Of a stretch of 64,000 bases of DNA, positions 9,780 to 24,852 are shown one piece after another (within the stretch, counting starts at the first letter, position 1; each line of letters begins with the position of its first letter). The notes under the pieces were generated by a model. The model was not told where the DNA came from and made no database searches. It saw nothing but the letters and a program-made list of their open reading frames with translations. The position numbers and the translations under genes were made by a program. Origin of the DNA: Spirochaetia bacterium. Lineage in GTDB: Bacteria; Spirochaetota; Spirochaetia; CADAEX01. The stretch lies in the NCBI GenBank assembly GCA_963662795.1, contig OY759746.1, positions 3,136,001 through 3,200,000 of the forward strand, read 5' to 3'.

Positions 9780-11663
9780 ATGAAAAGCAGTACTTTAGAG
9801 CTCAGGAAGAAGATCTTTTTGATAGGAACAGTCCTGATTGTAGTGTTGATCATAATCAGGTACATGAGCCTGATGCTTTTCATCCCCGCAGACGGGGATG
9901 ATTCTGTTCTGCACAAACCGGTCGTGGAAAGAGGCCCGATACTTGACAGAAACGGCAGAATACTTGCCATACAGACAAGACTGTATTCGGTTACAGCCTG
10001 GATACCAAGTATAAAGGATGCCGGAAAAACAGCATCAATCATATCGGAAGTACTTGAAATTGATAAAAATCAGCTTATTCAGGATATCTCATCCCGCCCG
10101 CGGTTCATGTACATAAAAAGAAAAATTTCCAACAGCGATGCGGAGGAATTAAGGGGTTATATCGACAAGGGAGATCTGCCTGGAATAGGTCTTGAGCCTG
10201 AATACGGCAGAAGTTATCCGGAAAAAGAGCTTGCCTCCCACCTTATAGGTTATACCGGAACAGACAATACCGGACTTGAAGGGATTGAATACACATACAA
10301 CAGCATCCTTTCCCCCCCGTCAACACAGTCTATAGGAAACAGCAGTGACATCTACGGCAATCAGGTTTTTCTTACCATAGATATAAATATCCAGAATTTT
10401 GCCCATCAGGCAGCCCTTGAAGCCTGGGAAAAGTATAATCCCGATTCAGTCATGATGATAGCCGCAGAGGCCCGGACAGGAGATATACTTGCCTATGTTT
10501 CAATCCCTGAAGTTGATCTTAATAATTTCTCCGCATCGCAGGCGGGAGACAGGATCAACCGGCCTGTGGCGAATGCCTATGAACCCGGTTCTGTTTTTAA
10601 GATATTCAGTATAGCTTCCTTTCTCCAGCTTGGAGGCATTGATGAACAAAGCGAGTTTTACTGCAACGGATTTTTTGAGATAAATACAGAAGGGACAAAC
10701 CCGGTAAAAATCAAATGTCTTGGAAATCACGGGACAGTTACCCCTGAAAATATCCTTAAATATTCATGCAACGCGGGAGCGGCCTATGCCTCCCTTACTG
10801 TCTCTGATGAAAGTTTTTACCGGATGCTTAAACTGTTTGATTTCGGTGAACGGACCGGAGTTCTCCTTCCCGGCGAGACTGTCGGACTTTTAAGGGAAGA
10901 CAGGCTTTGGTCTATCCGGTCAAAACCGACAATTTCATTTGGTCAGGAAATATCAGTCTCTGCAATGCAGATAGTCAAGGCTGCCTCAGTATTTGCCAAC
11001 GCAGGTGTAATGCTTCAGCCGCATATTGTGAGCAAAGTTGTCGGGCACGACGGAAAGGTTGTTGACAAATCTGTAAGGGAACCGATAAGACAGGTAATTT
11101 CACCTGAAACCGCATCCTCCGTACTGCAGATGATGACCACTGTTGCTGATGCGGATGGAGGGACCGGGAGAAGGGCGGCCGTTGACGGGATAACAATGGC
11201 AGTAAAAACAGGGACAGCCCAGAAACTTGATAAACAAACCGGAAAATACTCTGAAAATGAGTTTATATCATCCTGCCTTGCCGTATTTCCTGCCGAGGAT
11301 CCGCAGATCATAGTATATAACGTAATTGAGAATCCAAAAAAGGTCAGCTACTACGGCGGGGTGATCGCGGCCCCCCTTGTCGGGGACCTCTCTGATAAAA
11401 TAGTATCGTATCTTGGTATACCAAGAACCGGGGACATGGTAATCAACCATCCCGGAAAAATTACCATAAAACAGAAACCTCCGCTCACACTTGATGACAA
11501 GGTTCCTGATTTTACAGGAATGTCGAAAAGGGAACTGCTTCCTCTCCTGAAAGACAACAGGGTAAAGGTTTTAATTACAGGCGACGGATGGGTAAGGAAC
11601 CAGAATCCGCCTCCGGGTACAGATGTTGTTGACGGACTTAATATCAGACTTGAGCTTGAATAA
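9780..11663 (+). CDS. ftsI: Class B penicillin-binding protein (FtsI-like) with PASTA domain
   Basis: RGPILDRNG, EPGSVFK (SxxK), SCN (SxN), KTGT, C-terminal PASTA. Confidence 0.88.
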   Translation: MKSSTLELRKKIFLIGTVLIVVLIIIRYMSLMLFIPADGDDSVLHKPVVERGPILDRNGRILAIQTRLYSVTAWIPSIKDAGKTASIISEVLEIDKNQLIQDISSRPRFMYIKRKISNSDAEELRGYIDKGDLPGIGLEPEYGRSYPEKELASHLIGYTGTDNTGLEGIEYTYNSILSPPSTQSIGNSSDIYGNQVFLTIDINIQNFAHQAALEAWEKYNPDSVMMIAAEARTGDILAYVSIPEVDLNNFSASQAGDRINRPVANAYEPGSVFKIFSIASFLQLGGIDEQSEFYCNGFFEINTEGTNPVKIKCLGNHGTVTPENILKYSCNAGAAYASLTVSDESFYRMLKLFDFGERTGVLLPGETVGLLREDRLWSIRSKPTISFGQEISVSAMQIVKAASVFANAGVMLQPHIVSKVVGHDGKVVDKSVREPIRQVISPETASSVLQMMTTVADADGGTGRRAAVDGITMAVKTGTAQKLDKQTGKYSENEFISSCLAVFPAEDPQIIVYNVIENPKKVSYYGGVIAAPLVGDLSDKIVSYLGIPRTGDMVINHPGKITIKQKPPLTLDDKVPDFTGMSKRELLPLLKDNRVKVLITGDGWVRNQNPPPGTDVVDGLNIRLELE

Positions 11664-11675
11664 ATCGGAAAACTG

Positions 11676-13532
11676 ATGGAAATTGAAGAGAAAAATTACC
11701 GGCTCCTGAAAGAAAAGTTAAATATTGACCTGAATATGCTCAACTTCAGGGATGATATGATTGTTGAGAGATCTTCAAAAGGGGAGCCTACTGTCAGAAT
11801 AGGAAACCGCTATATCCACAGCAGGCATGACCCTTCGGGTGAAGCCCGGAAGATCATAGCATCAGCCATGGAAGAAGGTTTTGACTGCTGGGTTTTCGGG
11901 GGCCTGGGCCTTGGTTATCATCTTGAAACATTTCTTGAGCTTAACAAAGAGGCAAAGGCGGTAATAGTTGAGCCTGAACTTTCTTTTTTATCTGCCGCGG
12001 CAAAAAACCGTTCCCTTGAAAAAATAATAAATTCTGACAGGGTGTATTTCGTCCTCGGCCCTGAGCCGGATGCAGTTTCTCCCTGTCTTAATTCACTGCA
12101 GTGCGAAAGAATAAAATATTTTCAGATAAGGTCTGAATATGAACTGTCTCCGGATTTTTTCGAAGAGTCTAAAAAAGCGGTTGCGCGCTATGTATCGAGA
12201 AAAGAAATAAACAACAACACATTAAAAAGATTCGGGAAAATATGGGTAAAGAACCTCTGTGATAATCTTGCCGAATTTACCGTATCACCCGGTCTTGTTC
12301 ACCTTAAGGATTTATTTAAATCCATCCCTTCCCTGATTCTTGCCGGGGGGCCGGGCCTTGATTCTGTATTGCCTTTTCTCGGAGAATTGAGAAAAAAATA
12401 TCTTCTGATTGCTGTCGACACATCATACAGGGCCTGCCTCTCATTCGGCGTGATACCAGATATCCTTATTGTTGTCGATCCCCAGTACTGGAACTCACGG
12501 CATCTTGACAGATGCGGCAGCAAAGGGACAGTGCTTGTCTCAGAGCCTTCAACCTACAGCCGGATATTCAGGAATTTCGGCAATTATAAATTCTTTGCAG
12601 GCTCTGTTTTCCCTCTCGGGCGATATTTTGAAGGTACTACATTTGAAAGGGGAAAAATCGGGGCTGGAGGCTCTGTTTCAACAAGCGCCTGGGATCTTGC
12701 GAGGCAGGCAGGGTGCAGTGAGGCTCTTTTCGCCGGGCTTGACCTTGGATACCCTGACAAAAGGACCCACTTCAAGGGGAGCTTTTTTGAAGAGAGGGCC
12801 CACACCCTGTCCTCAAGGCTCCGTCCTGCCTCTGAGATGGATTTTTCACTTATTACAGATGCCTCACTGATTGAAACAGAAAGCTCTTCCGGAGGTGTGG
12901 TTTTTACAGACAGAAGACTGATCATCTACAGACAGTGGTTTGAAGAGCAGTTTCTTATTCATGATTTCAGGACTTTAAACCTGTCTCTTAACGGCGTGCT
13001 CATAAAGGGAATGAAGACAGCTACCTTAAGGGACGCACTTGATAAACCTGATATAAGGGATGAAATCGACGGCAGACTGGAAAAACTAAAAGCATTTTCA
13101 GAAAGTTACAGGGCTTCCAGAGGAAGCGGTTATATAGATGAAACACTTAAAAACATCAGGGAATTGCTTGAATCCTTTAAAACCCTTAAAAATTCCGCAC
13201 TGAAAGGAAAAAAAGCGGCAAGAACCCTTCTTTTTAGGTTTGGAAACAGTATCGGCTTCAAAGACAGGCAGAAGAAAGAAATGCAAAAACTCTTCACTGC
13301 GCTTGATGAGGCGGATATGGAGGTTCTTGCCGGAAGCGGGAAAAGCATGGCCGGATTTCTTCTGCAGGATGTAATCAGAACCATAACAGGGGATGCCGGT
13401 TCAAAAGACTTTGGCTCGGTAATAGGAAAATCACTGAAAATTTATACAGAACTTGAGCAGTCATCTGATATCCATATCTCTAACCTTAAAAATAGCCTGA
13501 AAGCGCTTGAAAAGAAAAAATCACGGCAGTAA
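11676..13532 (+). CDS. Motility-associated factor (Maf)/DUF115 MptE-like flagellin glycosyltransferase family protein
   Basis: IHSRHDP, GLGLGY, AGGPGLD, VDPQ, GGSVST, GLDLGY motifs. Confidence 0.82.
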   Translation: MEIEEKNYRLLKEKLNIDLNMLNFRDDMIVERSSKGEPTVRIGNRYIHSRHDPSGEARKIIASAMEEGFDCWVFGGLGLGYHLETFLELNKEAKAVIVEPELSFLSAAAKNRSLEKIINSDRVYFVLGPEPDAVSPCLNSLQCERIKYFQIRSEYELSPDFFEESKKAVARYVSRKEINNNTLKRFGKIWVKNLCDNLAEFTVSPGLVHLKDLFKSIPSLILAGGPGLDSVLPFLGELRKKYLLIAVDTSYRACLSFGVIPDILIVVDPQYWNSRHLDRCGSKGTVLVSEPSTYSRIFRNFGNYKFFAGSVFPLGRYFEGTTFERGKIGAGGSVSTSAWDLARQAGCSEALFAGLDLGYPDKRTHFKGSFFEERAHTLSSRLRPASEMDFSLITDASLIETESSSGGVVFTDRRLIIYRQWFEEQFLIHDFRTLNLSLNGVLIKGMKTATLRDALDKPDIRDEIDGRLEKLKAFSESYRASRGSGYIDETLKNIRELLESFKTLKNSALKGKKAARTLLFRFGNSIGFKDRQKKEMQKLFTALDEADMEVLAGSGKSMAGFLLQDVIRTITGDAGSKDFGSVIGKSLKIYTELEQSSDIHISNLKNSLKALEKKKSRQ

Positions 13533-13672
13533 TAAATATACCCGGCTTATAAACATATCTTAAAAATCTTCAAGGCAGTCTTGTCCCTGAAATTCGAAAA
13601 GAACATTAAAGGGGCTCTCCCATCAGACCGAAAATAATACTGAGGGTTGCTTAATTATTTGGTCCTCAAATT

Positions 13673-13711
13673 ACGGTATGCAATACTGACGTCCAGGCAT
13701 ACCGTTTTTTT
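13673..13711 (+). terminator. Intrinsic terminator-like hairpin
   Basis: ACGGTATGC (13673-81) / GCATACCGT (13697-705) followed by a T run. Confidence 0.6.
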
Positions 13712-13762
13712 ATTTTTAAATACTTGTCAGATAAGAACTTATTCTGCTATACCTGTTCCCTG

Positions 13763-13795
13763 CACCATTTCCTACACCATTTCCTACACCATTTT
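13763..13795. repeat. Tandem 12-bp repeat CACCATTTCCTA (about 2.7 copies), probable integrase arm-type binding sites
   Basis: Direct repeats seen just upstream of the integrase start. Confidence 0.6.
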
Positions 13796-13823
13796 ATTTT
13801 TAATTTTGATAAGGGGTCAATAA

Positions 13824-14986
13824 ATGCGTAGCAGAAAACCTTATTCATTGGTTAAAAGAAAGCCAAAAAAGGGTCATGTATACCATTATCGCTTCTATGA
13901 TGAGACAGGCAGACGCAATAAAAGAAATACCGGGCAAACAACAATTGTAAAAGCCCATGAGTATGTTCTGTCTCTTTTAAACAAGGGCTCCCTGGTATCA
14001 GAGAAAAAAGAAAAAGAACTTCCAGTCAAAGGAATTACCACTTTTAAAGATTTCGCAGAAGAATATTTCGTCTGGGGGAAGTGTGATTATATCCTTGAAC
14101 GGAATAATTTCGGCGGTAAATCCATTTCAAAGGAACATGCATATACTGAACGGCAATACCTGGTTAACTGGATCAGGCCGTATTTTAAATCCCGGGATAT
14201 GGAAACAATTTCCATAAATGATATCAAAAGCTTTGTATTTTATCTCAAGAAGAAGGGAACACTTTCAGATGGGACCATTAACCATATTTTAAAACTGGTT
14301 AAAATGGTCTTTTCTAAAGCTCATCGGGATGAGGTAATTGAAAAAATCCAACAGAAGGACTCCCTTATTTAAGAGTGTACCAGAAAAACCGCGGGATCCT
14401 CACGATAGAAGAGGCACATAAGCTATTTAAAGAAAGTGACATGATGGAGGTTTGGGGAAATGAAATGCTCTATGCCTTAAATCTGTTTGCGATAATGACC
14501 GGCTGCAGGAGGGGTGAAATTCTTCGCTGCAGAATAAGTACGTTCACAATGAATATGTAGAGATAAAACACTCCTGGGGGAAATTAACAGGCCTTAAACC
14601 TACAAAAACAAAGGAAGAGCGGGTAATTCCTATACATCAGGGGTTATCCAGGTATTTAACAGAGCTTAAAGGGGAGAATCCGGACGGGTTTATATTCTCC
14701 TATGATGGTGGGGAAAAGATATTCCCGAAAAACGAGATATTAAAAGGTCTTTATGCTTCACTTGAGAAAATTGGGATAACTCAGGAAGAGAGGGAGAGGC
14801 GAAATATCACTTTTCACTCATACCGGCATTTCATTTAATACCTATTGCCGGTCCCAGAATGTAACAGACGACAAGGTGAGGGCAGTCACAGGGCATAAAA
14901 CACAAGCTATGGTTGATAATTATACCCATTTCAGGGTTGAGGATTTCCGGGAGATACTTGATGTACAAGGGACTATTATTAATTGA
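13824..14986 (+). pseudogene. Tyrosine recombinase/integrase, multiply frameshifted
   Basis: Arm-binding/SAM-like N terminus (13824-14372), then TGCRRGEI, KPTKT, ITFHSYRH, VTGHKT and NYTH motifs in different frames. Confidence 0.88.
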
Positions 14987-15001
14987 GTTAAAAAAGTATT
15001 G

Positions 15002-15030
15002 TTGCAGTAATCAATAAACATGCTTAAAAT
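15002..15030 (+). promoter_or_regulatory. Putative sigma70 promoter of the ImmA/DUF4411 operon
   Basis: TTGCAG-17 bp-TAAAAT. Confidence 0.45.
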
Positions 15031-15118
15031 AAATATGAGAACTGATTTTATTTTTCAGATAAGTTTTGACATTTTTAATTGAAATATTGCATTTCAGGTA
15101 GCAATCGGAGTTATAAAT

Positions 15119-16273
15119 ATGGTTCAGGCATTAATTAAACCACAAATTGTTAAATGGGCTCGTGAGAATGCAAATTTAAATGAAGATATAATTGCAGCCG
15201 CCTTAAAAATAAAGATAGATAAATACCTTGCTTGGGAAAATGGAGAGGAGTTGCCAAGTTTTATTCAAGCACAGAAATTGGCAAAAAAACTTCAAATACC
15301 TTTTGGTTTTTTATATTTGAATAAGCCACCTGAAAAGTCTATCCCTATCCCTGATCTGAGAACTATTAATAATATTAAGAACGATTTTAGTATAAATTTT
15401 CAGGACATTATTAAATCTGCATTAAGGAAACAAGAGTGGCTAAGTAACTACTTAAAAGGTGAGGATGAAGATAAAGTCGATTTTATTGGCAAGTTTGGTA
15501 TTAATGATGACTATCATACTATAGCAAAGGATATTAGAGAAAAACTTGATATTGATATTAAGGCAGCAAAAAAAATTAAAACATGGGCTGATTATTTAAG
15601 TTATTTAGCACATAAAGCTGAATTAAAAAATATAATAGTTTTAAGAAATAGTGTTGTTGGGAATAATACGAATAGGCATCTTAATGTATCTGAATTTAGA
15701 GGATTTGCTATTTGTGACCAATATGCTCCTCTAATTTTTATCAATACAGATGATTCTAAAGCTGCTCAAATATTTACCTTTGCTCATGAATTGGCTCATT
15801 TATGGCTTGGCGAAAGTGGTATTTCTGATATTTTTATTGATACAGACAACGAAACACAAAACAAAAATATTGAATATTTTTGTAATTCTATTGCGGGTGA
15901 ATTTTTGATACCAAGCGATCTAATAATTAAAAATAAAAATATCAACTCTCAAATACTTTCTGATTTAGCAAATGAGTTTAAAGTTAGTACCGTTGTAATA
16001 TTGCGTAGAGCATATGATTTAAAAATTATTAATAAAAACACTTATTACAGCTTGCTTGAAGTAGAAAAAGAAAAACAAAAATTACCCTTAAAAACTTCTT
16101 CCGGGGGTGATTTTTATAAAACTAATCTTCTTCGAAATGGAGAGATATTAACTAATTATTTAATTAATTCTGTCTTAGAAGGAAAAGTTTTATACAGAGA
16201 AGCTGCATTAATTTTAGACGTTAAAGTTGAGACTATCCGAAAAATAGCAGATCAAATGAGCATTAGAAGCTAA
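15119..16273 (+). CDS. XRE-HTH + ImmA/IrrE zinc metallopeptidase (putative antitoxin)
   Basis: N-terminal HTH (WENGEELPS), FRGFAI, FTFAHELAH (HExxH). Confidence 0.9.
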   Translation: MVQALIKPQIVKWARENANLNEDIIAAALKIKIDKYLAWENGEELPSFIQAQKLAKKLQIPFGFLYLNKPPEKSIPIPDLRTINNIKNDFSINFQDIIKSALRKQEWLSNYLKGEDEDKVDFIGKFGINDDYHTIAKDIREKLDIDIKAAKKIKTWADYLSYLAHKAELKNIIVLRNSVVGNNTNRHLNVSEFRGFAICDQYAPLIFINTDDSKAAQIFTFAHELAHLWLGESGISDIFIDTDNETQNKNIEYFCNSIAGEFLIPSDLIIKNKNINSQILSDLANEFKVSTVVILRRAYDLKIINKNTYYSLLEVEKEKQKLPLKTSSGGDFYKTNLLRNGEILTNYLINSVLEGKVLYREAALILDVKVETIRKIADQMSIRS

Positions 16274-16758
16274 TGGATACATTTTGTCTTGATTCAAATA
16301 TCTTTATAGAAGCGAAAAATGGTGCTTATGGTTTTGACATTGTCCCTGGCTTTTGGAATTGGTTAGATTATAATATTGAAAAAGGAATAATCTATTCCCC
16401 TATAAATGTATATCAAGAATTAATTGAAAGTGATGATGACTTAGCTATTTGGGCAAAGGATCGGAGAGATAAAGGATTATTCAGGCTACCAAATGACGAA
16501 ATTCAAATTTTTTTCAGTAAAGTTGCAGATTTCGTAGTTAATACTTATCCGCCTGAATATGCAGACCCCTTTTTAAATGGTGCTGATCCATGGGTTATAT
16601 CATATGCAAAGATTAATAATTCGAAAGTAGTAACTCGAGAACGATTTTTGTCTGGTACCCCTAAAAGAGTAAAAATACCGAATGTATGTGAATATTTTCA
16701 TATAGCTTACCTTGATACATATACGTTGCTTAGAACATTAAAAGCCCAATTTAATTGA
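16273..16758 (+). CDS. DUF4411 PIN-like domain protein (putative toxin)
   Basis: LDSNIFIEA, ADPWVI, VVTRE, KIPNVC; TAATG overlap with the upstream peptidase gene. Confidence 0.85.
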   Translation: MDTFCLDSNIFIEAKNGAYGFDIVPGFWNWLDYNIEKGIIYSPINVYQELIESDDDLAIWAKDRRDKGLFRLPNDEIQIFFSKVADFVVNTYPPEYADPFLNGADPWVISYAKINNSKVVTRERFLSGTPKRVKIPNVCEYFHIAYLDTYTLLRTLKAQFN

Positions 16759-16781
16759 ACAATACTTGAATCACCTCAATT

Positions 16782-16812
16782 ATTCCCCCTGTTATATATC
16801 CAGGGGGATTTT
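16782..16812. terminator. Probable terminator between convergent TA operons
   Basis: TCCCCCTG / CAGGGGGA stem with T-rich 3' tail. Confidence 0.6.
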
Positions 16813-16877
16813 ATAATTTATAGGCATTAATTCTTTAAAATATAACTATTTTACAAAAAATTATGAATCATTTAGCA

Positions 16878-17999
16878 TTAACCAACTAAAATATTTTGAG
16901 GAAAAAGATCTTTTACTTTTTTCTTATAACGAGATAATTTTTTATACTCAACATAACCATTATGTTGTAAAATACCAAGTATTACGGATACTTCTATTTT
17001 TAATTTATTTGATATATTTAAGAGCGTTGCGTCAGTAAAATAATTGATAAATGGTTTTGAAAGTTCTATAATCTCTTTCACTTTTAATATTTCTTCAGCT
17101 TTGGAATCTGCTTCCTTTTCTATTTTTGATATTGAAGTATCTTTATGATCAAAATCATCAAGGGAAAAATAATCTTTATTTTTTGATAGATGTAGAAGTA
17201 TATGAGCTATTTCATGAGCTAATGTAAACCAAAAATTATCAATTCGATCATATCTGGCTGTATACACAATAACAGGATTTTCTTCTTCAAAAAAACATGC
17301 TCCATCTAAATAAGTTTTTGAAAGATGTGATTGAACGAAAAATTTTACACCCGCAGCATTTAAAGATTTAATTATCTCATTTACTCCATTTTCTTGAATT
17401 GTATATTTTGTTAAATTCTTTGATATTTTTTCTAATTTATTCATATCATACTTAGGGACAATAAAATTTCTTGAATGTTTTTTTGCAATTTGGTACCATG
17501 TATAACTATAGCGGTATGTGAAATCTTCATTTTCTTTTGATTGCCTTGCACAAAATTTTTTAGCTCCATCATAAAAGGAGAAATCAAGAGAGGTTACATC
17601 CCAAATCTTTTTATAAAGTTCTTCATAGTCTCTTGTTTTGTTGCTTGTCTTAAACCATCCTTTCTTATAAATTTCTAAAACAGGCATATATTTTCTAATT
17701 TCAGCCTTTTTTTTAATTATATTTTCTATTTTTTGTTTATTATCAGGTAAATTTAATCGGTAATTATTATCAAGGTTTAACCAATATTCTGGACTTGTCT
17801 CAAAGGCATTTGATAATAATTTTGCTGTTTCAACAGATATTTTTTGTTTATTGGTAATAATTTGACTTATTGTTTTTCCTGATAATTCAGTTATTTCAGC
17901 AAGATCTTCTTGTGTCCAACCTAAAGCGTCTAAATTCCTTTTAACTATGTCTCCAGCGCCTATTAAAATATAAGGCTTAATATAACATGATTTTTCCAT
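16878..17999 (-). CDS. higA: HigA-type HTH antitoxin fused to an ImmA/IrrE peptidase domain
   Basis: WTQEDLA...SPEYWLNL HigA HTH; DNFWFTLAHEIAH HExxH. Confidence 0.85.
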   Translation of the reverse strand: MEKSCYIKPYILIGAGDIVKRNLDALGWTQEDLAEITELSGKTISQIITNKQKISVETAKLLSNAFETSPEYWLNLDNNYRLNLPDNKQKIENIIKKKAEIRKYMPVLEIYKKGWFKTSNKTRDYEELYKKIWDVTSLDFSFYDGAKKFCARQSKENEDFTYRYSYTWYQIAKKHSRNFIVPKYDMNKLEKISKNLTKYTIQENGVNEIIKSLNAAGVKFFVQSHLSKTYLDGACFFEEENPVIVYTARYDRIDNFWFTLAHEIAHILLHLSKNKDYFSLDDFDHKDTSISKIEKEADSKAEEILKVKEIIELSKPFINYFTDATLLNISNKLKIEVSVILGILQHNGYVEYKKLSRYKKKVKDLFPQNILVG

Positions 18000-18022
18000 T
18001 GATACCCTCCGCCAAATAACAA

Positions 18023-18331
18023 TTAGTGATAATGAACACTAATTTTATCTATTCCAATTATTCCTTTTAGTTTTTCATTATCCTCCCATTCAATTTCAAC
18101 TTCTAATCTGTATTTCTTTGTTAATCTTAACGAATAGCGGTTTTTAAATTTTTTAAGTCTTTCAAAATTTAACGATGGTTCTTTGCGTAAGTCATATATA
18201 TTATTTGCAGCACATAAACTCGCTATGACTTCAAAGAAACTATGTATAACAATTTTATCGAGTTTATTCTTTCTGGTTTTCCCGCTTTCATATAAGTTAG
18301 CAATTTCTTTATTCAGAAATCTTACTTCCAC
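18023..18331 (-). CDS. higB: HigB/RelE-ParE family toxin (plasmid maintenance killer type)
   Basis: LNFERL, YSLRL..KYRL and C-terminal HYH; lies upstream of higA; GTG start appears leaderless. Confidence 0.85.
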   Translation of the reverse strand: MEVRFLNKEIANLYESGKTRKNKLDKIVIHSFFEVIASLCAANNIYDLRKEPSLNFERLKKFKNRYSLRLTKKYRLEVEIEWEDNEKLKGIIGIDKISVHYH

Positions 18332-18337
18332 TCACAA

Positions 18338-18425
18338 AGTATCGGGTAATATTGTTCAAATGTCAAGGCGTATTTTACCTAAAAGGTAAAACGATCTTGA
18401 CATTTGTTGTTAATTGTGATATAAT
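18338..18425. promoter_or_regulatory. Back-to-back sigma70 promoters with a central palindromic operator
   Basis: Minus strand TTGACA (18366-61)-17-GATACT; plus strand TTGACA (18397-402)-17-TGnTATAAT (-10 at 18420-25); TTTTACCT-aaa-AGGTAAAA at 18373-18391. Confidence 0.8.
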
Positions 18426-18427
18426 AA

Positions 18428-18493
18428 TAAAAAATGGAGCATAAAAAGCTCCACCCGTAATTTTGCGGAATGAAGCCATTAATTTATTGTGGT
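18428..18493 (-). ncRNA. Putative ~65-nt cis-antisense sRNA
   Basis: Minus-strand promoter TTGACA (18528-23)-17-TAAAAT (18505-00) and terminator TGGAGC-7 nt-GCTCCA-T6; ends approximate. Confidence 0.55.
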
Positions 18494-18596
18494 ATATAAA
18501 TTTTAACTGGTTTTTATTCCTCTGTCAATATTTTTTTGCAGCCTTATACGTTGTATTTGGAGCAAAATTGCGCAACTTAATGCGGAGGTAAACTAT

Positions 18597-18728
18597 ATGG
18601 CTAAAACAATTCATGTAACTGGGCATAGAAGATCAACACCTTCTTCCCCGCCATATAATGGTTCGGGACATAAACCAGGGCCCAAAACTGTCCCTGTAAA
18701 ACCGTATAACAGAAAACCACCTAAATAG
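18597..18728 (+). CDS. 43-aa basic, proline-rich peptide (missing from the ORF track)
   Basis: MAKTIHVTGHRRSTPSSPPYNGSGHKPGPKTVPVKPYNRKPPK; GGAGG RBS, consensus promoter and own terminator. Confidence 0.75.
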   Translation: MAKTIHVTGHRRSTPSSPPYNGSGHKPGPKTVPVKPYNRKPPK

Positions 18729-18730
18729 GT

Positions 18731-18760
18731 AAAAAAGCCCTATTTATATAGGGCTGTTTT
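18731..18760. terminator. Bidirectional intrinsic terminator
   Basis: A6-GCCCTAT / ATAGGGC-TGTTTTT between the peptide gene and the convergent Abi-like gene. Confidence 0.75.
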
Positions 18761-19206
18761 CATTACTTTTCCTTACTTAATCCCACTTGCTAAGAAAACA
18801 ATAGAGGTTGCAGTCAAATTAAGAATATATTCAACATATTTTTCATCTACATCAATTACTTTAGATCCCTGTCCGTGTCCACTTAATTTATTGCGTAATG
18901 TTGGAACACCAGATTCAAGTATACTTTGTAATCCATTGTAATGGCTTTGTAAATACGATGGAATATACCCCTTATTAAAAAGAAGTGAAATTAGGGTTTT
19001 CGAAGTTGCGTTTTGGTCATATATAATCCTTAATTCAGTTAAGACAATTTTAATTGTGCTTTCAAACGCTTTTAGGCAATCATTCATGCATTCTTTATTC
19101 TCTTTTTTTCTATAATGACTATGAGCAGATAAAAATTCTTGTTGTGCACCAGAAAACTTTTTATTATTTAAAATTTCTAAAGCTGGTTTGATAATTTCTT
19201 TATGAA

Positions 19207-20237
19207 TGACGGCCAGAAATTCCTAGCGCAATAAACTAATATTGTGACAGGAGTTTTAAGTGAGTTACAAAAGAATGAATCTCAATGAAAGAATGGCCAT
19301 TTTTCAGATGATTTACACCAAAAGATTAAAGCTATCACAAATAGCAAGTAATCTTGGCCGAAGAGCTTCAAGTATTACAAGAGAAATAAAACGCGGTACT
19401 GATGAAGGATATTACAATCCTTTAATTGCAGAGTATGAGCATTTAAGGCAAAGAAAAAATCAGAGCCCCAAATTAAAAATAGACAACAAGTCATGGCAGC
19501 TTATAAAACCCAAACTCCAACTCCGGTGGTCCCCACAGCAAATTGCCAAATGGCTGGAAATAAATTATCCTTCAGATAAAGTGAGTGATAAAACAATTTA
19601 TAACTATGTCCATTTCCACATGAGGGGAGAGCTTAAAAAACTAGCGCTTAAAGATTTAAGACTCAAAGGAAAGAAAAGAAAGAGTGCAAATAAGGACGAA
19701 AAACGGGGTAAATTAAAAGATATTACCCTTATAGACGAAAGGCCTGCTGAAATTAACTCACGGAAAGTTCCAGGACACTGGGAAGGAGATCTTCTCATTG
19801 GAAAGGACCATAAATCAGCAATCTGCGTAATAGTTGAACGTAAAACTAGGTTTATCCAGCTTGATCTGTTAAAAACATATGATGCAAATACAGTAAGAAA
19901 AACAATAGAGAAAAGGTTTAAGAAGATATCTCCTCTTCTAAGAAAATCTCTGACTCTTGATCAGGGTAAAGAGAACAGTGAGTTCAAAAAACTCAAAGAA
20001 AATCTTAATATTGATGTATACTTTTACCATCCGGCATCTCCCTGGGAAAAGGGAACATGTGAAAACACAAATGGCTTGATTCGTGATATGCTTGATGAAG
20101 TAGATGATTTCAGAAAGCTTTCGCAGTATGATGTATCACGAGTAGCAAGGCTATTGAATGAGAGGCCAAGAAAAACTCTTGACTTCATAACACCTAAAGA
20201 AGCTATTGCCAATTTGCGCTAGGAATTTCTGTGCACA
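19207..20237 (+). mobile_element. IS30-family insertion sequence
   Basis: 18-bp perfect inverted repeat CAGAAATTCCTAGCGCAA (19214-31 / 20214-31), TG...CA ends, 2-3 bp target duplication AA(T). Confidence 0.93.
19260..20222 (+). CDS. IS30 transposase (intact)
   Basis: SSITREIKR HTH, WSPQQI, HWEGDL, TLDQGKE, SPWEKGTCENTNG, LNERPRKTL. Confidence 0.95.
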   Translation: MSYKRMNLNERMAIFQMIYTKRLKLSQIASNLGRRASSITREIKRGTDEGYYNPLIAEYEHLRQRKNQSPKLKIDNKSWQLIKPKLQLRWSPQQIAKWLEINYPSDKVSDKTIYNYVHFHMRGELKKLALKDLRLKGKKRKSANKDEKRGKLKDITLIDERPAEINSRKVPGHWEGDLLIGKDHKSAICVIVERKTRFIQLDLLKTYDANTVRKTIEKRFKKISPLLRKSLTLDQGKENSEFKKLKENLNIDVYFYHPASPWEKGTCENTNGLIRDMLDEVDDFRKLSQYDVSRVARLLNERPRKTLDFITPKEAIANLR

Positions 20238-20790
20238 AATGTATTCACTGGATACTTTTATTATTATTCCCGATTCATATTTATACCCGAAAGCATGTTC
20301 TTTAAATCTATCATTCAATTCGGCTATTGCATCATCAGCATCTATTCTTGGGGAGGCCTGAGCTTGATAGGAATAGTTATCTCTTATAAAACTGTCTATT
20401 AATAAAAAACATAATTCAACAACATCAAAAGATTTTTCAAGGTTTTTTTCTTGAAGAAAATATTGTAATAAGTGATCATTTGATTTCATTAGGTGGCTGT
20501 ATTGTAATAATTCAAAAATGCCATGTTCCCTACATAAAATATTTATAACCTTTTGATATAGTGCTTGGACATCATTATATCGATCATCACCAAATGCATC
20601 AGCTATGATATGCATAATTTGTACTTTTAAGCTTTGCTCAGATTTATCATATTGATATACATCAGGAACTTGTCCACGTTCAATCCTCTTACGCTTCGAA
20701 TATAAATCATATATTGCCATAATAATCCTATTATTTTACTTCATATTAATACTTGTTGTTTGGCCACACATATTTTTTTTAAAACAGATT

Positions 20791-21303
20791 TCAATAGTTA
20801 GGGGGCCCTCCGTTTTTCGATAGTAAAAACATATAAATATCTGGTTTTCTTGGGGAGCCTCCATTCCTCCAGGAGCCTGAACTATTTTGGGCATCACCAA
20901 GATATAAACCATTGGAAGATTTTACTGGAGTAGTATTAGAATATTGTCCTGTCTTTGAATTGTACCACCAGCCATTATACCAAGTTGTTCTCCCATCTGA
21001 TACACCCCAAGCGGCCTTTGGACTTTTGGGGTGTGGCATCGTATAAGTCCAACCTTGTTCATACATTTCACATGCAATTATTATTTCTTGATTTGATGAA
21101 GAAATTCCAGGGCGTAAAAACTGTTTATTTTTACTTACTATTATGTCTGATGATAATCCTAAATCTGTAATCTTAGACCATGTATTATCATCATATAAAA
21201 CAGCTTTTGTGCCGTCTTTTAGTGTTACAATCTCTTCGGAAAATAGATTTATGGCTACACCCAGCAGACTAATAAATAAAAATGCTTTTTTATTCATTCT
21301 CAT
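20791..21303 (-). CDS. Hypothetical secreted protein
   Basis: GGAG RBS, signal peptide, VTLKDG..AVLYDDNTW N-terminal motif, Trp/Gly-rich C-terminal domain. Confidence 0.7.
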   Translation of the reverse strand: MRMNKKAFLFISLLGVAINLFSEEIVTLKDGTKAVLYDDNTWSKITDLGLSSDIIVSKNKQFLRPGISSSNQEIIIACEMYEQGWTYTMPHPKSPKAAWGVSDGRTTWYNGWWYNSKTGQYSNTTPVKSSNGLYLGDAQNSSGSWRNGGSPRKPDIYMFLLSKNGGPPNY

Positions 21304-21690
21304 TCTCCTAATTGTTCAACGAGGAGGGCCTTGAACATAAAGACATCGCTTCAAACTGATGTACTAATTTTCATGTTTTGATAAAAGCATGATGAGCAGA
21401 CCTATAGTATAAACTAGTAACATTCTAATCCCTCCCCATATATATGAACAGTAGAATTTAAAGAGTCATTAGAAATGATGGAATATGTATCAAAAATGAG
21501 TATTTACACCTGAATCTGGTTAATAAGTTGCAATAAAAAGAAGTAACATATAACGTATTTCCCCCGATTGTCGAAAAGAGGGATTATTTTTGTTTTATCC
21601 AGCTGTCATGTTTTAGTTAAAAACCTGGATTACCACTTGAATATGAGTCTAATTTTTCATTAGCTTTTTGAATGACTGCTTTTTTCACAT

Positions 21691-21822
21691 TCAAGTCTTT
21701 TCATACCTTATCTGGAGCAGAAATACTGCTTTGAGAGTAAAATCCTTTCCGTATTTGTCTGGCATGCCATCAATATATCGATCAGGATCATCTGGAAGCC
21801 TTAAGCTTCTTGGCTTACTCAC
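21691..21822 (-). pseudogene. Possible ribbon-helix-helix (Arc-like) remnant, 43 codons
   Basis: GTG start, MSKPRSLRLPDD resembles an RHH beta-strand/helix; short and possibly frameshifted. Confidence 0.3.
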
Positions 21823-21872
21823 CTATTATAAGTTAACATAATTTTCATATAAAAATATTTATGAAATATTTC

Positions 21873-21924
21873 TTGCGTAAATGGCTGGACAGGTGTATTA
21901 TGATCATGTGCAAAACAGTTTGCA
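21873..21924 (+). promoter_or_regulatory. Sigma70 promoter with a LacI-type operator
   Basis: TTGCGT-17-TATTAT (21873-21901), then palindrome TGCAAA-acag-TTTGCA (21909-24). Confidence 0.55.
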
Positions 21925-21994
21925 AAATATTTTAATAATGAAGCTTTTTATGCAGACTTTTTAAAGCAAAAATCCATACCGGAAAGGTGAGTAA

Positions 21995-22726
21995 ATGAAG
22001 AATACTATTGAAGCGATCCTGTTTGATGTTGGCAATACACTCCGTATAGTCGTTAAGGATACTGACTTTATGGCAGCAGCAAAGAAGGAGCTTGCGAATC
22101 TGCTTGGAACAAACATGACTCCGGACCAATTCTTTGATCATCTCGAAGAAAGGTACAAAATTCTCAGAAAACAGGCTAAAGAGAAACTGATTGAAGCTTC
22201 CGAAAAGGAAATGTGGACCCGCTGGATGCTACCTGATTATCCTTATGAAAAAATTGCACCGTTATCGGGAAAATTAACCCGTCTATGGAGGGATTGCGAC
22301 GGCCGCAGGATTCCAAGGCCTGATGTGAGGCCTGTTGTGCTTGAACTGCACAAGCGGGGTTATAAGATGGGTATTATTGCCAATACTATAACAGAATCTG
22401 AAATACCTGACTGGCTGGAGGCAGATCAGCTTACAGAATATTTTGATCCTGTCATTCTTTCATCAAAGGTCGGTATCAGAAAGCCAAACCCGGAAATCTA
22501 TCTGGAAGCTGCCCGTCAAATCGGGACGGAACCTCAAAATTGTGTCTATATCGGAGATAATCCTGTCCGGGATGTAGAAGGGGCACAGGCAGCAGGTTAT
22601 GGAATGATGATTCTGATCCATGAGCCTGACACCCTGAAAAAAGAACCGCCCAATGGTGTATTTAAAGCGGACCACACAATTTATGAATTATCCGGACTGC
22701 TGGATATTTTTCTTCCCAGATCATGA
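21995..22726 (+). CDS. HAD-family hydrolase
   Basis: LFDVGNTL motif I, RKPNPEIY, YIGDNPVRDVEGA motif IV. Confidence 0.9.
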   Translation: MKNTIEAILFDVGNTLRIVVKDTDFMAAAKKELANLLGTNMTPDQFFDHLEERYKILRKQAKEKLIEASEKEMWTRWMLPDYPYEKIAPLSGKLTRLWRDCDGRRIPRPDVRPVVLELHKRGYKMGIIANTITESEIPDWLEADQLTEYFDPVILSSKVGIRKPNPEIYLEAARQIGTEPQNCVYIGDNPVRDVEGAQAAGYGMMILIHEPDTLKKEPPNGVFKADHTIYELSGLLDIFLPRS

Positions 22727-23016
22727 TGGTTAAAAAGGTAAAATGAACGGCCATGAGCATAGCCTGTTAAGCTGAACGGAGATTTTGATGAAATTAACCG
22801 GGAAGTGAATCAGGCAATTCTTTTTTGTCGGTTTTTTTACATAAAATAAATGAAATGAAAGAATACTTGCGTTTTTTAAATTATAATGTATTATCATAAT
22901 AGTATGCAATATTTTAGATAATATGAATATTTATGGAAATCAGGAATTTAAATGGATCAGAAAAACATGAATTCAAATTGATTTCCATTTGACTAATGAA
23001 TATTAGGAGTTAATTA

Positions 23017-24852
23017 ATGACTGTTACAACAATCCCTAAAGTTCCGCTGCCCCTGCTGAATAAGGCCCGTTTAAGACGTTTTTTACGCTGGCTTAAATCT
23101 CCGCAGGTAATTCTCTCCCTCATCATGCTTGCGGTTATGTTTTATATGGTCATCATCCCCCTCTACCGGATGCTGATAACAACCATTACATTCTCGGAGA
23201 ACGATCTGCGTTATGCACCTGGAGCTGTAGTCGGGCAGTTTACTCTTTTTCACTGGCTTAGAATGCTTACCAGTAAAATTGCTGTGATAATGACTTTTCA
23301 GCCCCTTCTTCATTCCCTGACCATCTCGTTCGGCGCAACTACACTTGCCTTTGTCATCGGCGGTACCATGGCCTGGATGGTTGTGCGGACTGATATGCCG
23401 GGAAGAAAGATCATAAACGTCCTGGCAGTGGTTCCCTATATCATGCCATCATGGACAATCGCCATGGCCTGGAAAGTACTGTTCAACAACGGCACTGCAG
23501 GAGGTGTTCCCGGAATTCTTATGTTCCTGACCGGTACTGCGCCTCCTGATTGGGTTGCTTTCGGGCCACTTCCGATCATCATAAGCAGCGCTCTGCACTA
23601 CTATACATTCTATTTTCTTTTTGTGTCCGCTGCACTGATGTCAATTGACTCAAGCCTTGAAGAGGCCGCTGAGCTCTCAGGTGCCAGCCGCGGCCGGATA
23701 CTGCGGAAAATCACATTTCCGCTTGTTATTCCCGCATTACTCTCCGGATTTATCATGACTTTTTCTAAAACCATGGGCACATTCGGCGGACCTAACGTCC
23801 TTGGAGTTCCGGTCAGTTACTATACCATGTCGACTATGCTCCGCTCCAATACAACAGTGCTTGCTTTTGGAGATGCGTTTGTTCTGGCTATAATACTTAT
23901 CCTCTTCTCAATGACAACAGTAACGGTAAACCAGAAAATCGTAGGAACAAGGAAAAGCTATGAAACCATAGGCGGACGGGGTTTTATGGCCCAGAAAACC
24001 AAACTGAGAGAAAGCAAATATATCCTGACCGCTATAACGGTTACTTTTCAGATAATTATAGCTGTACTGCCTCTGCTGCTGTTGATTATGAGTACTTTAA
24101 TGCTCCGTTCAGGCAGCTACAGTTTTGATAACCTGAGTCTGGCCCATTGGATCGGCCAGAGTGATGTGAAAATTAATAGCGGTGAACCTGGTATACTGCT
24201 GAATCCGGCTATCTGGAAAGGAGCCTGGAACTCGGTCAAGCTGGCAACGTATACCGCTTTTTTCACAGCACTGCTTGGCGTAATCCTCGGCTATGCAATA
24301 GTCAAGGGCAGAGGCACAAGGCTTGGAAAAATCGTGGAGCAGCTGGCTTTCGTTCCCTATGTTATCCCCGGTATTGCTTTCGGCGCTGTATATATCTCGA
24401 TGTTTACAAAATCTGTCGGTCCCATTCCGCCGCTTTATGGAACTTTCCTCCTGCTGGTTATTGTTTCAGTTGCAAAGCATATTCCTTACTCTTCCCGTTC
24501 CGGTGTATCTGCAATGCTGCAGGTCGGACGGGAACTCGAGGAAGCAGCAGCTGTTGCCGGAGCCAATGCGTGGCGGCGGTTCTGGCGTATAATTTTCCCT
24601 CTTACCAGCGCAGGTTTTGTTTCAGGATTTCTTTTAACCTTCATTACAACCATGCGCGAATTGTCACTTATAATACTGCTGGTAACGCCGAGTACCGCAG
24701 TACTTGCCAGCATGACAATGCGCTATATTGAAAACGGAAATGAACAGCAGGCCAATGCTGTAATATTATTACTGATTACCATCGTTCTGATTGGTAACTT
24801 TATTATCAGCCGCTTCAGAGGCGGCAGTCTAAAAAAAGGTCTTGGAGCATAA
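23017..24852 (+). CDS. ABC transporter permease, FbpB/AfuB-type (two fused TM domains)
   Basis: Two EAA loops (LEEAAELSGA, LEEAAAVAGA), about 12 TM segments. Confidence 0.9.
   Translation: MTVTTIPKVPLPLLNKARLRRFLRWLKSPQVILSLIMLAVMFYMVIIPLYRMLITTITFSENDLRYAPGAVVGQFTLFHWLRMLTSKIAVIMTFQPLLHSLTISFGATTLAFVIGGTMAWMVVRTDMPGRKIINVLAVVPYIMPSWTIAMAWKVLFNNGTAGGVPGILMFLTGTAPPDWVAFGPLPIIISSALHYYTFYFLFVSAALMSIDSSLEEAAELSGASRGRILRKITFPLVIPALLSGFIMTFSKTMGTFGGPNVLGVPVSYYTMSTMLRSNTTVLAFGDAFVLAIILILFSMTTVTVNQKIVGTRKSYETIGGRGFMAQKTKLRESKYILTAITVTFQIIIAVLPLLLLIMSTLMLRSGSYSFDNLSLAHWIGQSDVKINSGEPGILLNPAIWKGAWNSVKLATYTAFFTALLGVILGYAIVKGRGTRLGKIVEQLAFVPYVIPGIAFGAVYISMFTKSVGPIPPLYGTFLLLVIVSVAKHIPYSSRSGVSAMLQVGRELEEAAAVAGANAWRRFWRIIFPLTSAGFVSGFLLTFITTMRELSLIILLVTPSTAVLASMTMRYIENGNEQQANAVILLLITIVLIGNFIISRFRGGSLKKGLGA

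Follow-up and report, generated by a model that had tools for sequence, protein, structure and literature searches.

Introduction

Most families of type I toxin-antitoxin (TA) toxins are hydrophobic or membrane-active, and the toxins typically have fewer than 60 amino acids (aa). In the IncI-alpha and IncB plasmids, translation of repZ (repA) is governed by a long-distance pairing, with which the Inc antisense RNA competes by binding a leader stem-loop far upstream of the ribosome binding site (RBS). Regulators of the CapH/CapP type act through cleavage-induced derepression of defence operons. PD-lambda-2, an anti-phage system of E. coli, is described in passages of Vassallo et al. (2022; PMC9519451) as consisting of a HigB-like component A encoded by the first gene, a component B in which an Xre-type helix-turn-helix (HTH) domain is fused to a C-terminal peptidase, and which alone is toxic and rescued by A, and a component C related to a P4 phage antitoxin and required for defence. 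As for type I systems, the abstract of PMC12390103 gives them as known only from Proteobacteria, Firmicutes and Tenericutes, so that a case in a spirochaete would be new. Here we analyse a locus in a stretch of 64,000 nucleotides (nt) of a Spirochaetia bacterium (assembly GCA_963662795.1, contig OY759746.1, positions 3,136,001 to 3,200,000), which as a whole is called the window and in which all coordinates are positions. The locus combines a HigB-like gene and a gene for an HTH domain fused to an M78 peptidase (HTH-M78) with a divergent gene for a small protein, whose long leader is faced by a predicted antisense RNA gene.

Overall, the comparison of related loci points to a well-supported antisense-regulated small-protein module, found in some Spirochaetia. 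We consider it probable that the HigB-like/HTH-M78 pair and the divergent small-protein gene with its antisense-facing leader form one conserved unit, in which the small protein is most likely kept off by binding of the antisense RNA. A literature search, which did not cover the supplementary homologue tables of PMC9519451 that are possibly relevant to the arrangement of PD-lambda-2 relatives, yielded no earlier description of the module, and passages of PMC11980606 do not describe it.

Results

The small-protein gene is part of a conserved divergent arrangement

From its letters alone, this DNA had previously been read as a hidden small-peptide locus of type I TA kind, with a promoter TTGACA-17-TGnTATAAT, a leader of ~165 nt, a GGAGG RBS, a 43-codon open reading frame (ORF) and a terminator. 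All of these elements are present (Table 1): the promoter has a counterpart in each of the seven module copies described below, the leader has about the same length in the related copies, and the codon-position pattern of the ORF is that of coding sequence. This sequence-only reading missed the main context, namely that the gene is the conserved divergent partner of a PD-lambda-2-like pair and belongs to a family that occurs in many phyla without the leader.

With the HTH-M78 protein as query (E<=1e-40), a search of 400 class genomes gave 17 others with a homologue, and in each of these we read the divergent side of its gene. Six of these loci carry both leader and small ORF, namely L126 (= L003), L128, L130 (= L066), L131, L134 (= L005) and L135; two hold remnants, seven have neither and two end at a contig edge. 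Together with the window, seven distinct copies of the module are available (window, L003, L005, L066, L128, L131 and L135). They have in common the HigB-like gene, the HTH-M78 gene, a palindrome between the divergent promoters (six of seven copies), the leader and the small ORF, and this arrangement was kept while the proteins diverged to 42-69% identity in several families of the class. The leader itself is 54-70% identical among four spirochaete copies and contains invariant blocks. At L133 the leader is retained as far as the 3′ strand of the helix described below, after which unrelated sequence follows, and the ORF is lost; L129 retains the first leader hairpin only. In the metagenome-assembled genome of L003, the HigB-like gene (3429-3730) is matched in two frames overlapping by one base, due to a frameshift or an assembly error.

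A tblastn analysis of 88 peptide loci found the HigB/HTH-M78 pair only in L003, L005, L066 and L089, the last being a metagenome copy of L066, and the upstream regions of these four loci align block by block with that of the window. Exact leader patterns retrieved one stretch in a metagenome scan, a near-copy of L066, none in a viral scan, and only the window's own genome among 400 genomes of the phylum. A looser viral pattern was discarded, its 34 stretches being all unrelated coding or chance matches. As far as these searches reach, the leader appears to be conserved only beside the HigB/HTH-M78 pair.

The same comparison disposes of the trivial explanation, in which chance hexamers and complementarity in AT-rich intergenic DNA, together with a spurious ORF, would mimic a regulated gene. 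Promoter-like sites between 17500 and 19800 number 11, as compared to 10.6 (standard deviation 2.9) in shuffled sequences, and this lack of an excess is what chance predicts. Chance is excluded not by the scan count but because the promoters, the long-range pairing and the ORF, with covariation, recur in six other diverged loci; the comparative data refute this explanation, which retains next to no probability.

A predicted antisense RNA gene faces the leader

The opposing promoter that had been noticed in the leader at 18528-18500 matches the consensus at 11 of 12 positions and is kept in all seven copies as a minus-strand TTGACA-17-TAnnnT, with a TGn extension in five. The T, A and T of its -10 box are the sole invariant columns of an otherwise variable stretch. 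From this promoter, an antisense RNA of 51-56 nt is predicted in each copy, consisting of a 5′ tail of 12-16 nt, a hairpin and a run of 5-9 U. In the window the length is 51 nt (18493-18443), and the conserved terminator is the larger hairpin at 18476-18448. The TGGAGC/GCTCCA hairpin, previously taken for the terminator, does exist and is followed by T6 (minus strand 18456-18432); it lies just beyond the conserved terminator and is a canonical stop only in the window, so that the ~65 nt initially proposed for the RNA would hold only if this second, window-specific stop is used. On the mRNA, this first leader hairpin is weak or degenerate, or absent, in L003.

The antisense hairpin has an outer stem that is complementary to two invariant blocks of the leader, CCACCC and GAATGAAGC. 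In an alignment of eight rows (the seven copies plus the L133 remnant), 89.2% of the cells are standard-paired, vs. 35-59% when the partners are slid, and four pairs have changed on both sides. Moreover, 20 of the 82 pairs summed over the seven copies are G.U pairs. Since the terminator stem is rich in G.U, the structure is specific to the minus strand: in all seven copies the hairpin of the minus strand, at -9.7 to -16.0 kcal/mol, exceeds in stability the best fold that the segment forms on the plus strand (-1.4 to -11.6 kcal/mol). Of the signs that the antisense RNA is produced and matters, this minus-strand-specific structure is the strongest. The window's genome, searched with a covariance model of this RNA, gave a single 58-bit match, the next one (34.6 bits) being an ordinary terminator after an unrelated gene. 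Overall, although the comparative RNA evidence rests on seven related sequences, comparison shows the predicted antisense promoter and terminator to be under selection, and the antisense RNA and leader together represent a candidate new RNA family.

The predicted RNA is complementary to approximately nt 12-62 of the mRNA and does not cover the Shine-Dalgarno (SD) sequence or the start codon. We infer that it is made, and that it represses rather than activates.

A covarying long-range helix closes the leader domain

The 11-bp pairing proposed earlier between CGTAATTTTGC (18456-66) and GCAAAATTGCG (18562-72) is present, with 10 Watson-Crick pairs and one G.U. When each leader was folded from the base following CCACC as far as the 3′ partner of the helix, the same four-way junction was the minimum free energy (MFE) structure in six of the seven leaders; L131 keeps the closing helix and has a different interior. 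The sequences of the helix differ among the copies yet stay complementary. Because the 3′ strand is aligned wrongly by MAFFT, this was tested by duplex energies and permutation: summed over the seven cognate duplexes the energy is -76.3 kcal/mol, derangements have a mean of -41.5 (standard deviation 3.8) and a best value of -54.0, and among all 5040 permutations no other assignment scores as well as the true one. From the 3′ end of the helix to the AUG there are 22-25 nt in L005, L066, L128, L131 and L135 and, by manual count, ~23 nt in the window and ~21 nt in L003. Comparison thus shows the predicted long-range helix to covary and to be under selection. The leader domain also folds more stably on the plus strand than on the minus strand in the four copies compared.

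The apical part of the antisense hairpin is complementary to this helix's 5′ strand, and therefore the antisense RNA and the 3′ strand of the helix would compete for the same mRNA segment. By its complementarity, this competition is a predicted universal feature of the module copies. The leader domain further holds a 5′ strand, GGAAUGAAGCC, that pairs with the anti-SD region: GGAAU adjoining the closing helix pairs with AUUCC of the block AAUUCYUCUGUCAAU, and the same block can pair with the SD. Compensated changes are found as AGAAU/AUUCU in L005 and L066 and as GAGAUU/AAUCUU in L135.

As to the likeness to IncI repZ control seen by the sequence-only reading, the long-range helix covaries and its 5′ strand is the predicted antisense target, with a putative effect on translation. 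A leader peptide, whose translation is coupled to activation in the IncI systems, has no conserved form in the seven leaders. The candidates, including a hydrophobic 42-aa ORF of the window with a TTG start (18463-18591), were rejected on the ground that frames and lengths are not kept; upstream ORFs from a conserved ATG encode 5-35 aa and are absent in L135.

A junction of ~115 nt with four ways and invariant unpaired nucleotides exceeds the needs of a simple antisense target, which raises the alternative that the leader is mainly a sensor of a ligand or protein, possibly the basic peptide itself, which may bind RNA, while the minus-strand promoter acts chiefly by transcriptional interference. 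The geometry would suit interference, given that the facing promoters are ~60 nt apart and that the antisense terminator lies ~12 nt downstream of the inferred mRNA start at 18432 and ~18 nt from the end of the plus-strand -10 box. On the other hand, a scan of 17000-20000 against Rfam gave no family match (best E 0.12, with every match well short of its gathering score), the terminator stem of the antisense RNA, with its G.U pairs, accounts for the invariant blocks, and none of the analyses indicates a ligand or protein partner. We attach little probability to this alternative and favour an antisense-controlled leader.

Table 1. Features of the module in the window, with positions, strand (a dot where no strand applies) and the evidence for each.
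Feature	Position	Strand	Evidence
Gene for HTH (Xre/HigA-like) domain fused to M78 (ImmA/IrrE) peptidase, 373 aa, PD-lambda-2 component B-like	16878-17999	-	Pfam, TIGR02607, PADLOC
HigB-like (RelE-fold) gene, 102 aa, GTG start, first gene of the operon	18023-18331	-	PF05015, phrog_3066
Promoter-like site of the higB-like operon, TTGACA-17-GATACT	18338-18366	-	scan; present in window, L003, L005, L066
Palindrome TTACC-N5-GGTAA between the two divergent -35 boxes, candidate HTH-M78 operator	18375-18389	.	pattern
Small-protein mRNA promoter TTGACA-17-TGnTATAAT, 12/12 matches with TG; inferred start near 18432	18397-18425	+	consensus scan
5′-terminal mRNA hairpin TGGAGC / A-rich loop / GCTCCA; on the minus strand a hairpin with T6	18435-18453	+	scan
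Predicted 51-nt cis-antisense RNA: 16-nt 5′ tail, hairpin 18476-18448, U run	18443-18493	-	seven-copy comparison
Structured leader domain, four-way junction closed by long-range helix 18456-66 / 18562-72	18456-18572	+	MFE, duplex energies
Antisense RNA promoter TTGACA-17-TAAAAT, 11/12 matches	18500-18528	-	scan
Anti-SD candidate CCUCUG in the invariant AAUUCYUCUGUCAAU block	18519-18524	+	alignment
Shine-Dalgarno sequence GGAGG, 8 nt before ATG	18584-18588	+	read directly
43-codon ORF, basic proline-rich small protein with internal duplication (two KTVPVKPHRRSTP-like motifs)	18597-18728	+	ORF list, alignment, codon-position pattern
Bidirectional terminator hairpin, common to the convergent AbiJ-like gene fragment	18736-18755	.	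scan

The small protein is conserved and basic

In the four spirochaete copies, the variable sites fall as 20, 14 and 39 of 43 columns on the first, second and third codon positions, and third positions are 21-47% identical as compared to 71-85% for positions 1 and 2; synonymous sites are saturated among the module copies. By this pattern, the small ORF is evidently coding and under selection at the protein level. As the sequence-only reading had remarked, the product is hydrophilic and basic, in contrast to typical membrane type I toxins: it contains 9 Pro and 12 K/R/H, no D/E and no long hydrophobic stretch. An AlphaFold2 model built from 17 sequences (pLDDT 74, pTM 0.16) has neither helix nor strand, and given this lack of predicted secondary structure the peptide is probably extended and acts by binding something. 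RRSTP and KPGPK are invariant in the alignment of 17 sequences, and only R12, P15 and KPGPK in a later set of 18. The predicted complex of the peptide with the HTH-M78 and HigB-like chains scored 0.00 and, as controls were absent, speaks neither for nor against binding.

These properties bear on the possibility that the locus is a true type I TA system, with a toxic peptide whose antitoxin is the antisense RNA, and with a HigB/HTH-M78 pair that is separate and shares only the promoter region. Hallmarks of such systems are a small ORF, here within the size (<60 aa) typical of type I toxins, a long-range mRNA pairing, and a long structured leader whose 5′ part is overlapped by a cis-antisense RNA; the double control suggests a costly product, and the setting is a defence and TA island. 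Against it stand the peptide, which lacks a hydrophobic stretch and, in the AlphaFold2 model, a helix, and the situation elsewhere, where the gene mostly lies within an operon, at 2-21 nt from the adjacent genes, and no antisense element was detected, which is difficult to reconcile with an unguarded toxin; in addition, leader and ORF are found beside the HigB/HTH-M78 pair only. Membership in type I, to which the sequence-only reading had likened the locus, is therefore not supported for a peptide without a hydrophobic segment. We regard a true type I system as unlikely, and it appears similarly doubtful that the peptide is a toxin.

The peptide family occurs in defence islands of many phyla

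The peptide has no match in Pfam, NCBIfam or PADLOC; in PHROGs, a short partial match (E 1e-4) leads to a family of unknown function, phrog_21154, and the Protein Atlas returned unnamed clusters only (scores 0.82 and 0.76). A literature search on the peptide motifs found nothing. By contrast, relatives are numerous. A word-indexed search found 16 small proteins at 51-69% identity, and when 1.84 billion cluster representatives were searched in full with HMMER, 77 matched at E<=0.001, 27 of them at <=1e-10, nearly all of 40-80 aa. The genome collection holds 82 confirmed stretches, mostly in Bacteroidota, with some in Planctomycetota, Spirochaetota and Proteobacteria, and viral contigs hold 7; tblastn against plasmids and phages gave no match, where the low-complexity filter may have masked one. 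Longer proteins with the peptide motif are few (one fusion with a transmembrane segment and an SH3-like domain, the others looking like read-through calls), and none of these fused forms was informative as a clue to function.

At most Bacteroidota loci the small gene is co-directional with its close neighbours in the operon. The nearest upstream genes, 76 after removal of redundancy, include 9 of Eco57I type (8 also N6_Mtase), 7 with TIR, 3 of Shedu with SduA_C, 2 of type ISP and 2 HigB-like genes; a type IIG restriction-modification enzyme of ~1300 aa lies within 3.5 kb in 22 loci, and the genes downstream of the small gene are heterogeneous across loci. Given these varied neighbours of defence type, the small-protein family appears to be linked to defence islands and not tied to one system.

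The same variety of neighbours, together with the HTH-M78 loci devoid of the small gene (7/17), is what one would expect if the small protein were a mobile 'passenger' of defence islands, with a function unrelated to HigB/HTH-M78, that landed in one spirochaete lineage. In that case it is difficult to see the arrangement persisting, as it does, in several families of the class whose proteins have drifted apart to 42-69% identity, or the palindrome between the divergent promoters being kept in six of the seven copies. We attach little probability to such a passenger, and the conserved unit remains our preferred reading.

In some peptide variants each repeat is preceded by paired Cys/His, and others, of 35-36 aa, have a single repeat and a Cys at either end (L068-L072 and L080, from Planctomycetota; L070, L073, L075, L078, L079, L081 and L083-L088); this hints at metal binding or a disulfide. 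In several genera of Flavobacteriaceae (L008, L010, L013, L018, L038, L040, L049 and L062) the small gene sits in one common neighbourhood, with a histidine kinase with TPR, a response regulator, DUF6804, a TerB-like protein and two unannotated proteins. Finally, a near-identical cassette of the small ORF followed by 266-aa and 157-aa proteins without Pfam match was found on short contigs (L024, L029, L031, L053, L055 and L058) binned to widely separate phyla, namely to Flavobacterium, Saccharibacteria, Erysipelotrichaceae, Flammeovirgaceae, Pleomorphovibrio and Flavobacteriaceae, a spread which points to a mobile element or to mis-binning.

The HigB-like/HTH-M78 pair resembles components A and B of PD-lambda-2

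The 373-aa protein matches HTH_3 (E 8.8e-12) and Peptidase_M78 (E 4.4e-8) in Pfam, TIGR02607 HigA (E 2.1e-13) and, over residues 21-368, the PADLOC model PD-Lambda-2_B (PDLC03982; E 1.1e-47); weak PADLOC matches to capP (E 3.5e-7) and capH (E 5.7e-6) were also obtained. Its HExxH motif is intact, H262, E263 and H266 being invariant among 44 HTH-M78 homologues. The HigB-like protein matches PF05015 (E 2.3e-7) and phrog_3066, 'toxin of TA system', and its homologues (42-56% identity) adjoin the HTH-M78 gene in the related loci; it does not match the PADLOC model of PD-lambda-2 A at E<=0.01. The window pair thus follows the order of PD-lambda-2, A then B, without C: the gene after B is a convergent DUF4411 gene, and component C was not matched among the 7 neighbouring proteins scanned with PADLOC models.

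The predicted promoters of the two transcription units lie close together. A plus-strand promoter matching that of the window lies 24-29 nt upstream of the CCACC block in all seven copies. On the other side, the -10 box of the higB-like promoter is GATACT or GATAAT in the four copies scanned and ends 5-7 nt before the start codon (7 nt before GTG in the window, 18331-18343 on the minus strand) with no SD, which suggests a leaderless higB-like mRNA. The palindrome was found by its pattern in six of the seven module copies and is absent from L131; we infer that the HTH-M78 protein binds it as an operator.

The module lies in a low-GC island

Between 14000 and 22000 the G+C content is 28-34%, vs. 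~41% in the flanks. This stretch contains integrase fragments, an HTH-M78/DUF4411 pair, the HigB-like and HTH-M78 genes, the small ORF and a split AbiJ-like gene, and the Pfam and PADLOC matches of the neighbours agree with the defence island that had been recognised from the sequence. The AbiJ-like gene is interrupted by an IS30-family transposase gene: the part with AbiJ_NTD4 is N-terminal and that with DUF7014/Abi_C is C-terminal, with the transposase gene between them (18773-19087 on the minus, 19260-20222 on the plus and 20151-20720 on the minus strand). The transposase is of the rve family with N-terminal HTH domains and was taken as IS30-type. The second HTH-M78 gene (15119-16273, plus strand), whose product has PADLOC matches of RmrA type down to E 4.7e-18, overlaps by stop and start with the DUF4411 (PIN-like) gene (16273-16758, plus strand), and the two look like another TA- or defence-like pair of the same island. 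At the left edge of the island, an integrase frame (13824-14560, plus strand) is interrupted and falls into two or more ORFs; a search of 11000-24000 gave no tRNA. The intergenic region of the module is single copy in the window's genome, and its DNA has no match in 60 relatives and none in plasmids.

Discussion

In the mechanism we propose, the HigB-like and HTH-M78 genes would be transcribed leftwards and the small-protein gene rightwards from a shared palindromic operator region. The leader of ~165 nt would fold into a junction closed by the long-range helix, and the antisense RNA, encoded on the opposite strand inside the leader, would keep the small protein off by freeing the anti-SD or through a duplex that is then cleaved. 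As a second lock, the HTH-M78 protein would repress transcription, and the peptide would be the gated output or an accessory factor of the defence module.

Several observations weigh against this reading. The antisense RNA and both start sites are predicted from consensus promoters. In a control with 500 shuffles, 18-27 shuffles reach the value observed for the antisense hairpin in four of five measures, the sequences being related; for changes on both sides 8 do so, and for further pair types 141. The z-scores of the leader-domain fold are -4.5, -2.8, -1.1 and -0.6, significant in two of four. Among the other phyla's peptide loci, a search of 88 sources for the leader or antisense element yielded only 6 weak matches of <=27.4 bits. 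The window's peptide is the most divergent copy. The seven of 17 HTH-M78 loci without leader or small ORF also belong here, and from them it would follow that the HigB-like/HTH-M78 pair works without both; the small gene appears to have been lost more than once.

The anti-SD proposed earlier (CCTCTG) belongs with these points. By sequence it fits six of the seven leaders, L131 being without the AAUUCYUCU block, and its thermodynamic support is modest. Masking of the antisense target in silico changed the probability that the SD is unpaired from 0.57 to 0.03, 0.03 to 0.01, 0.29 to 0.32, 0.47 to 0.15, 0.02 to 0.00, 0.24 to 0.13 and 0.67 to 0.51 in the seven leaders. Accessibility thus drops clearly in two, the window (0.57 to 0.03) and L066 (0.47 to 0.15), slightly in four, and not in L005. 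Release of the anti-SD by the antisense RNA is plausible but not established in these models, and duplex-triggered cleavage or promoter interference would fit equally well.

A bolder version of the proposal takes the peptide as a new class of gated effector outside the membrane, either a type I-like toxin or a stand-in for component C, which would act on a nucleic-acid machine such as the ribosome or on DNA, would be released only when both locks open, and would be reused in type IIG, TIR and Shedu operons of other phyla. We judge it unlikely; if true, the module would be the first of type I-like antisense kind described in Spirochaetota.

For HigB/Xre-peptidase systems of the PD-lambda-2 type, defence has been proven by experiment, and neither their mechanism nor their third component is understood. 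In spirochaetes, a large clade of the pair carries a different, tightly controlled third gene, which offers a handle on what the pair regulates. Given that the unannotated peptide occurs in defence operons of many phyla, a function found for it would carry over widely. At the RNA level, the same invariant bases would serve in three roles: in one RNA as the terminator stem, in the other as the switch strand, and in addition as promoter.

As compared to the known systems, the locus shares with type I TA systems of the hok/sok, symE/symR and zorO/orzO types a small ORF that follows a long, structured 5′ leader, a long-range mRNA pairing and, here by prediction, a short cis-antisense RNA with its own promoter and terminator that overlaps the 5′ part of the mRNA. 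It differs in that the peptide is hydrophilic, basic, proline-rich and predicted to be extended instead of a membrane peptide, the predicted antisense RNA spares the SD and the start codon, and the locus is tied to a protein TA or defence pair; without a hydrophobic toxin, it is therefore not a typical type I system. With IncI-alpha/IncB control it would have in common a predicted antisense target that forms the 5′ strand of a long-range pairing near the RBS, with a putative effect on translation. However, instead of a loop pseudoknot the pairing is a junction-closing helix of 10-12 bp, the gene has no part in replication, and as it has no conserved leader peptide the locus is not of IncI type. 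The likeness to PD-lambda-2 lies in the HigB-like first gene followed by an Xre-HTH-peptidase gene in the same order; where the E. coli system has the C protein, the window has the divergent small-protein gene and the antisense element, and since the C component is missing the locus would not be PD-lambda-2 proper. Finally, regulators of the CapH/CapP type likewise combine an HTH repressor and an M78 peptidase with a palindrome between divergent promoters, whereas in the window both domains are fused in one chain, which is paired with the HigB-like protein.

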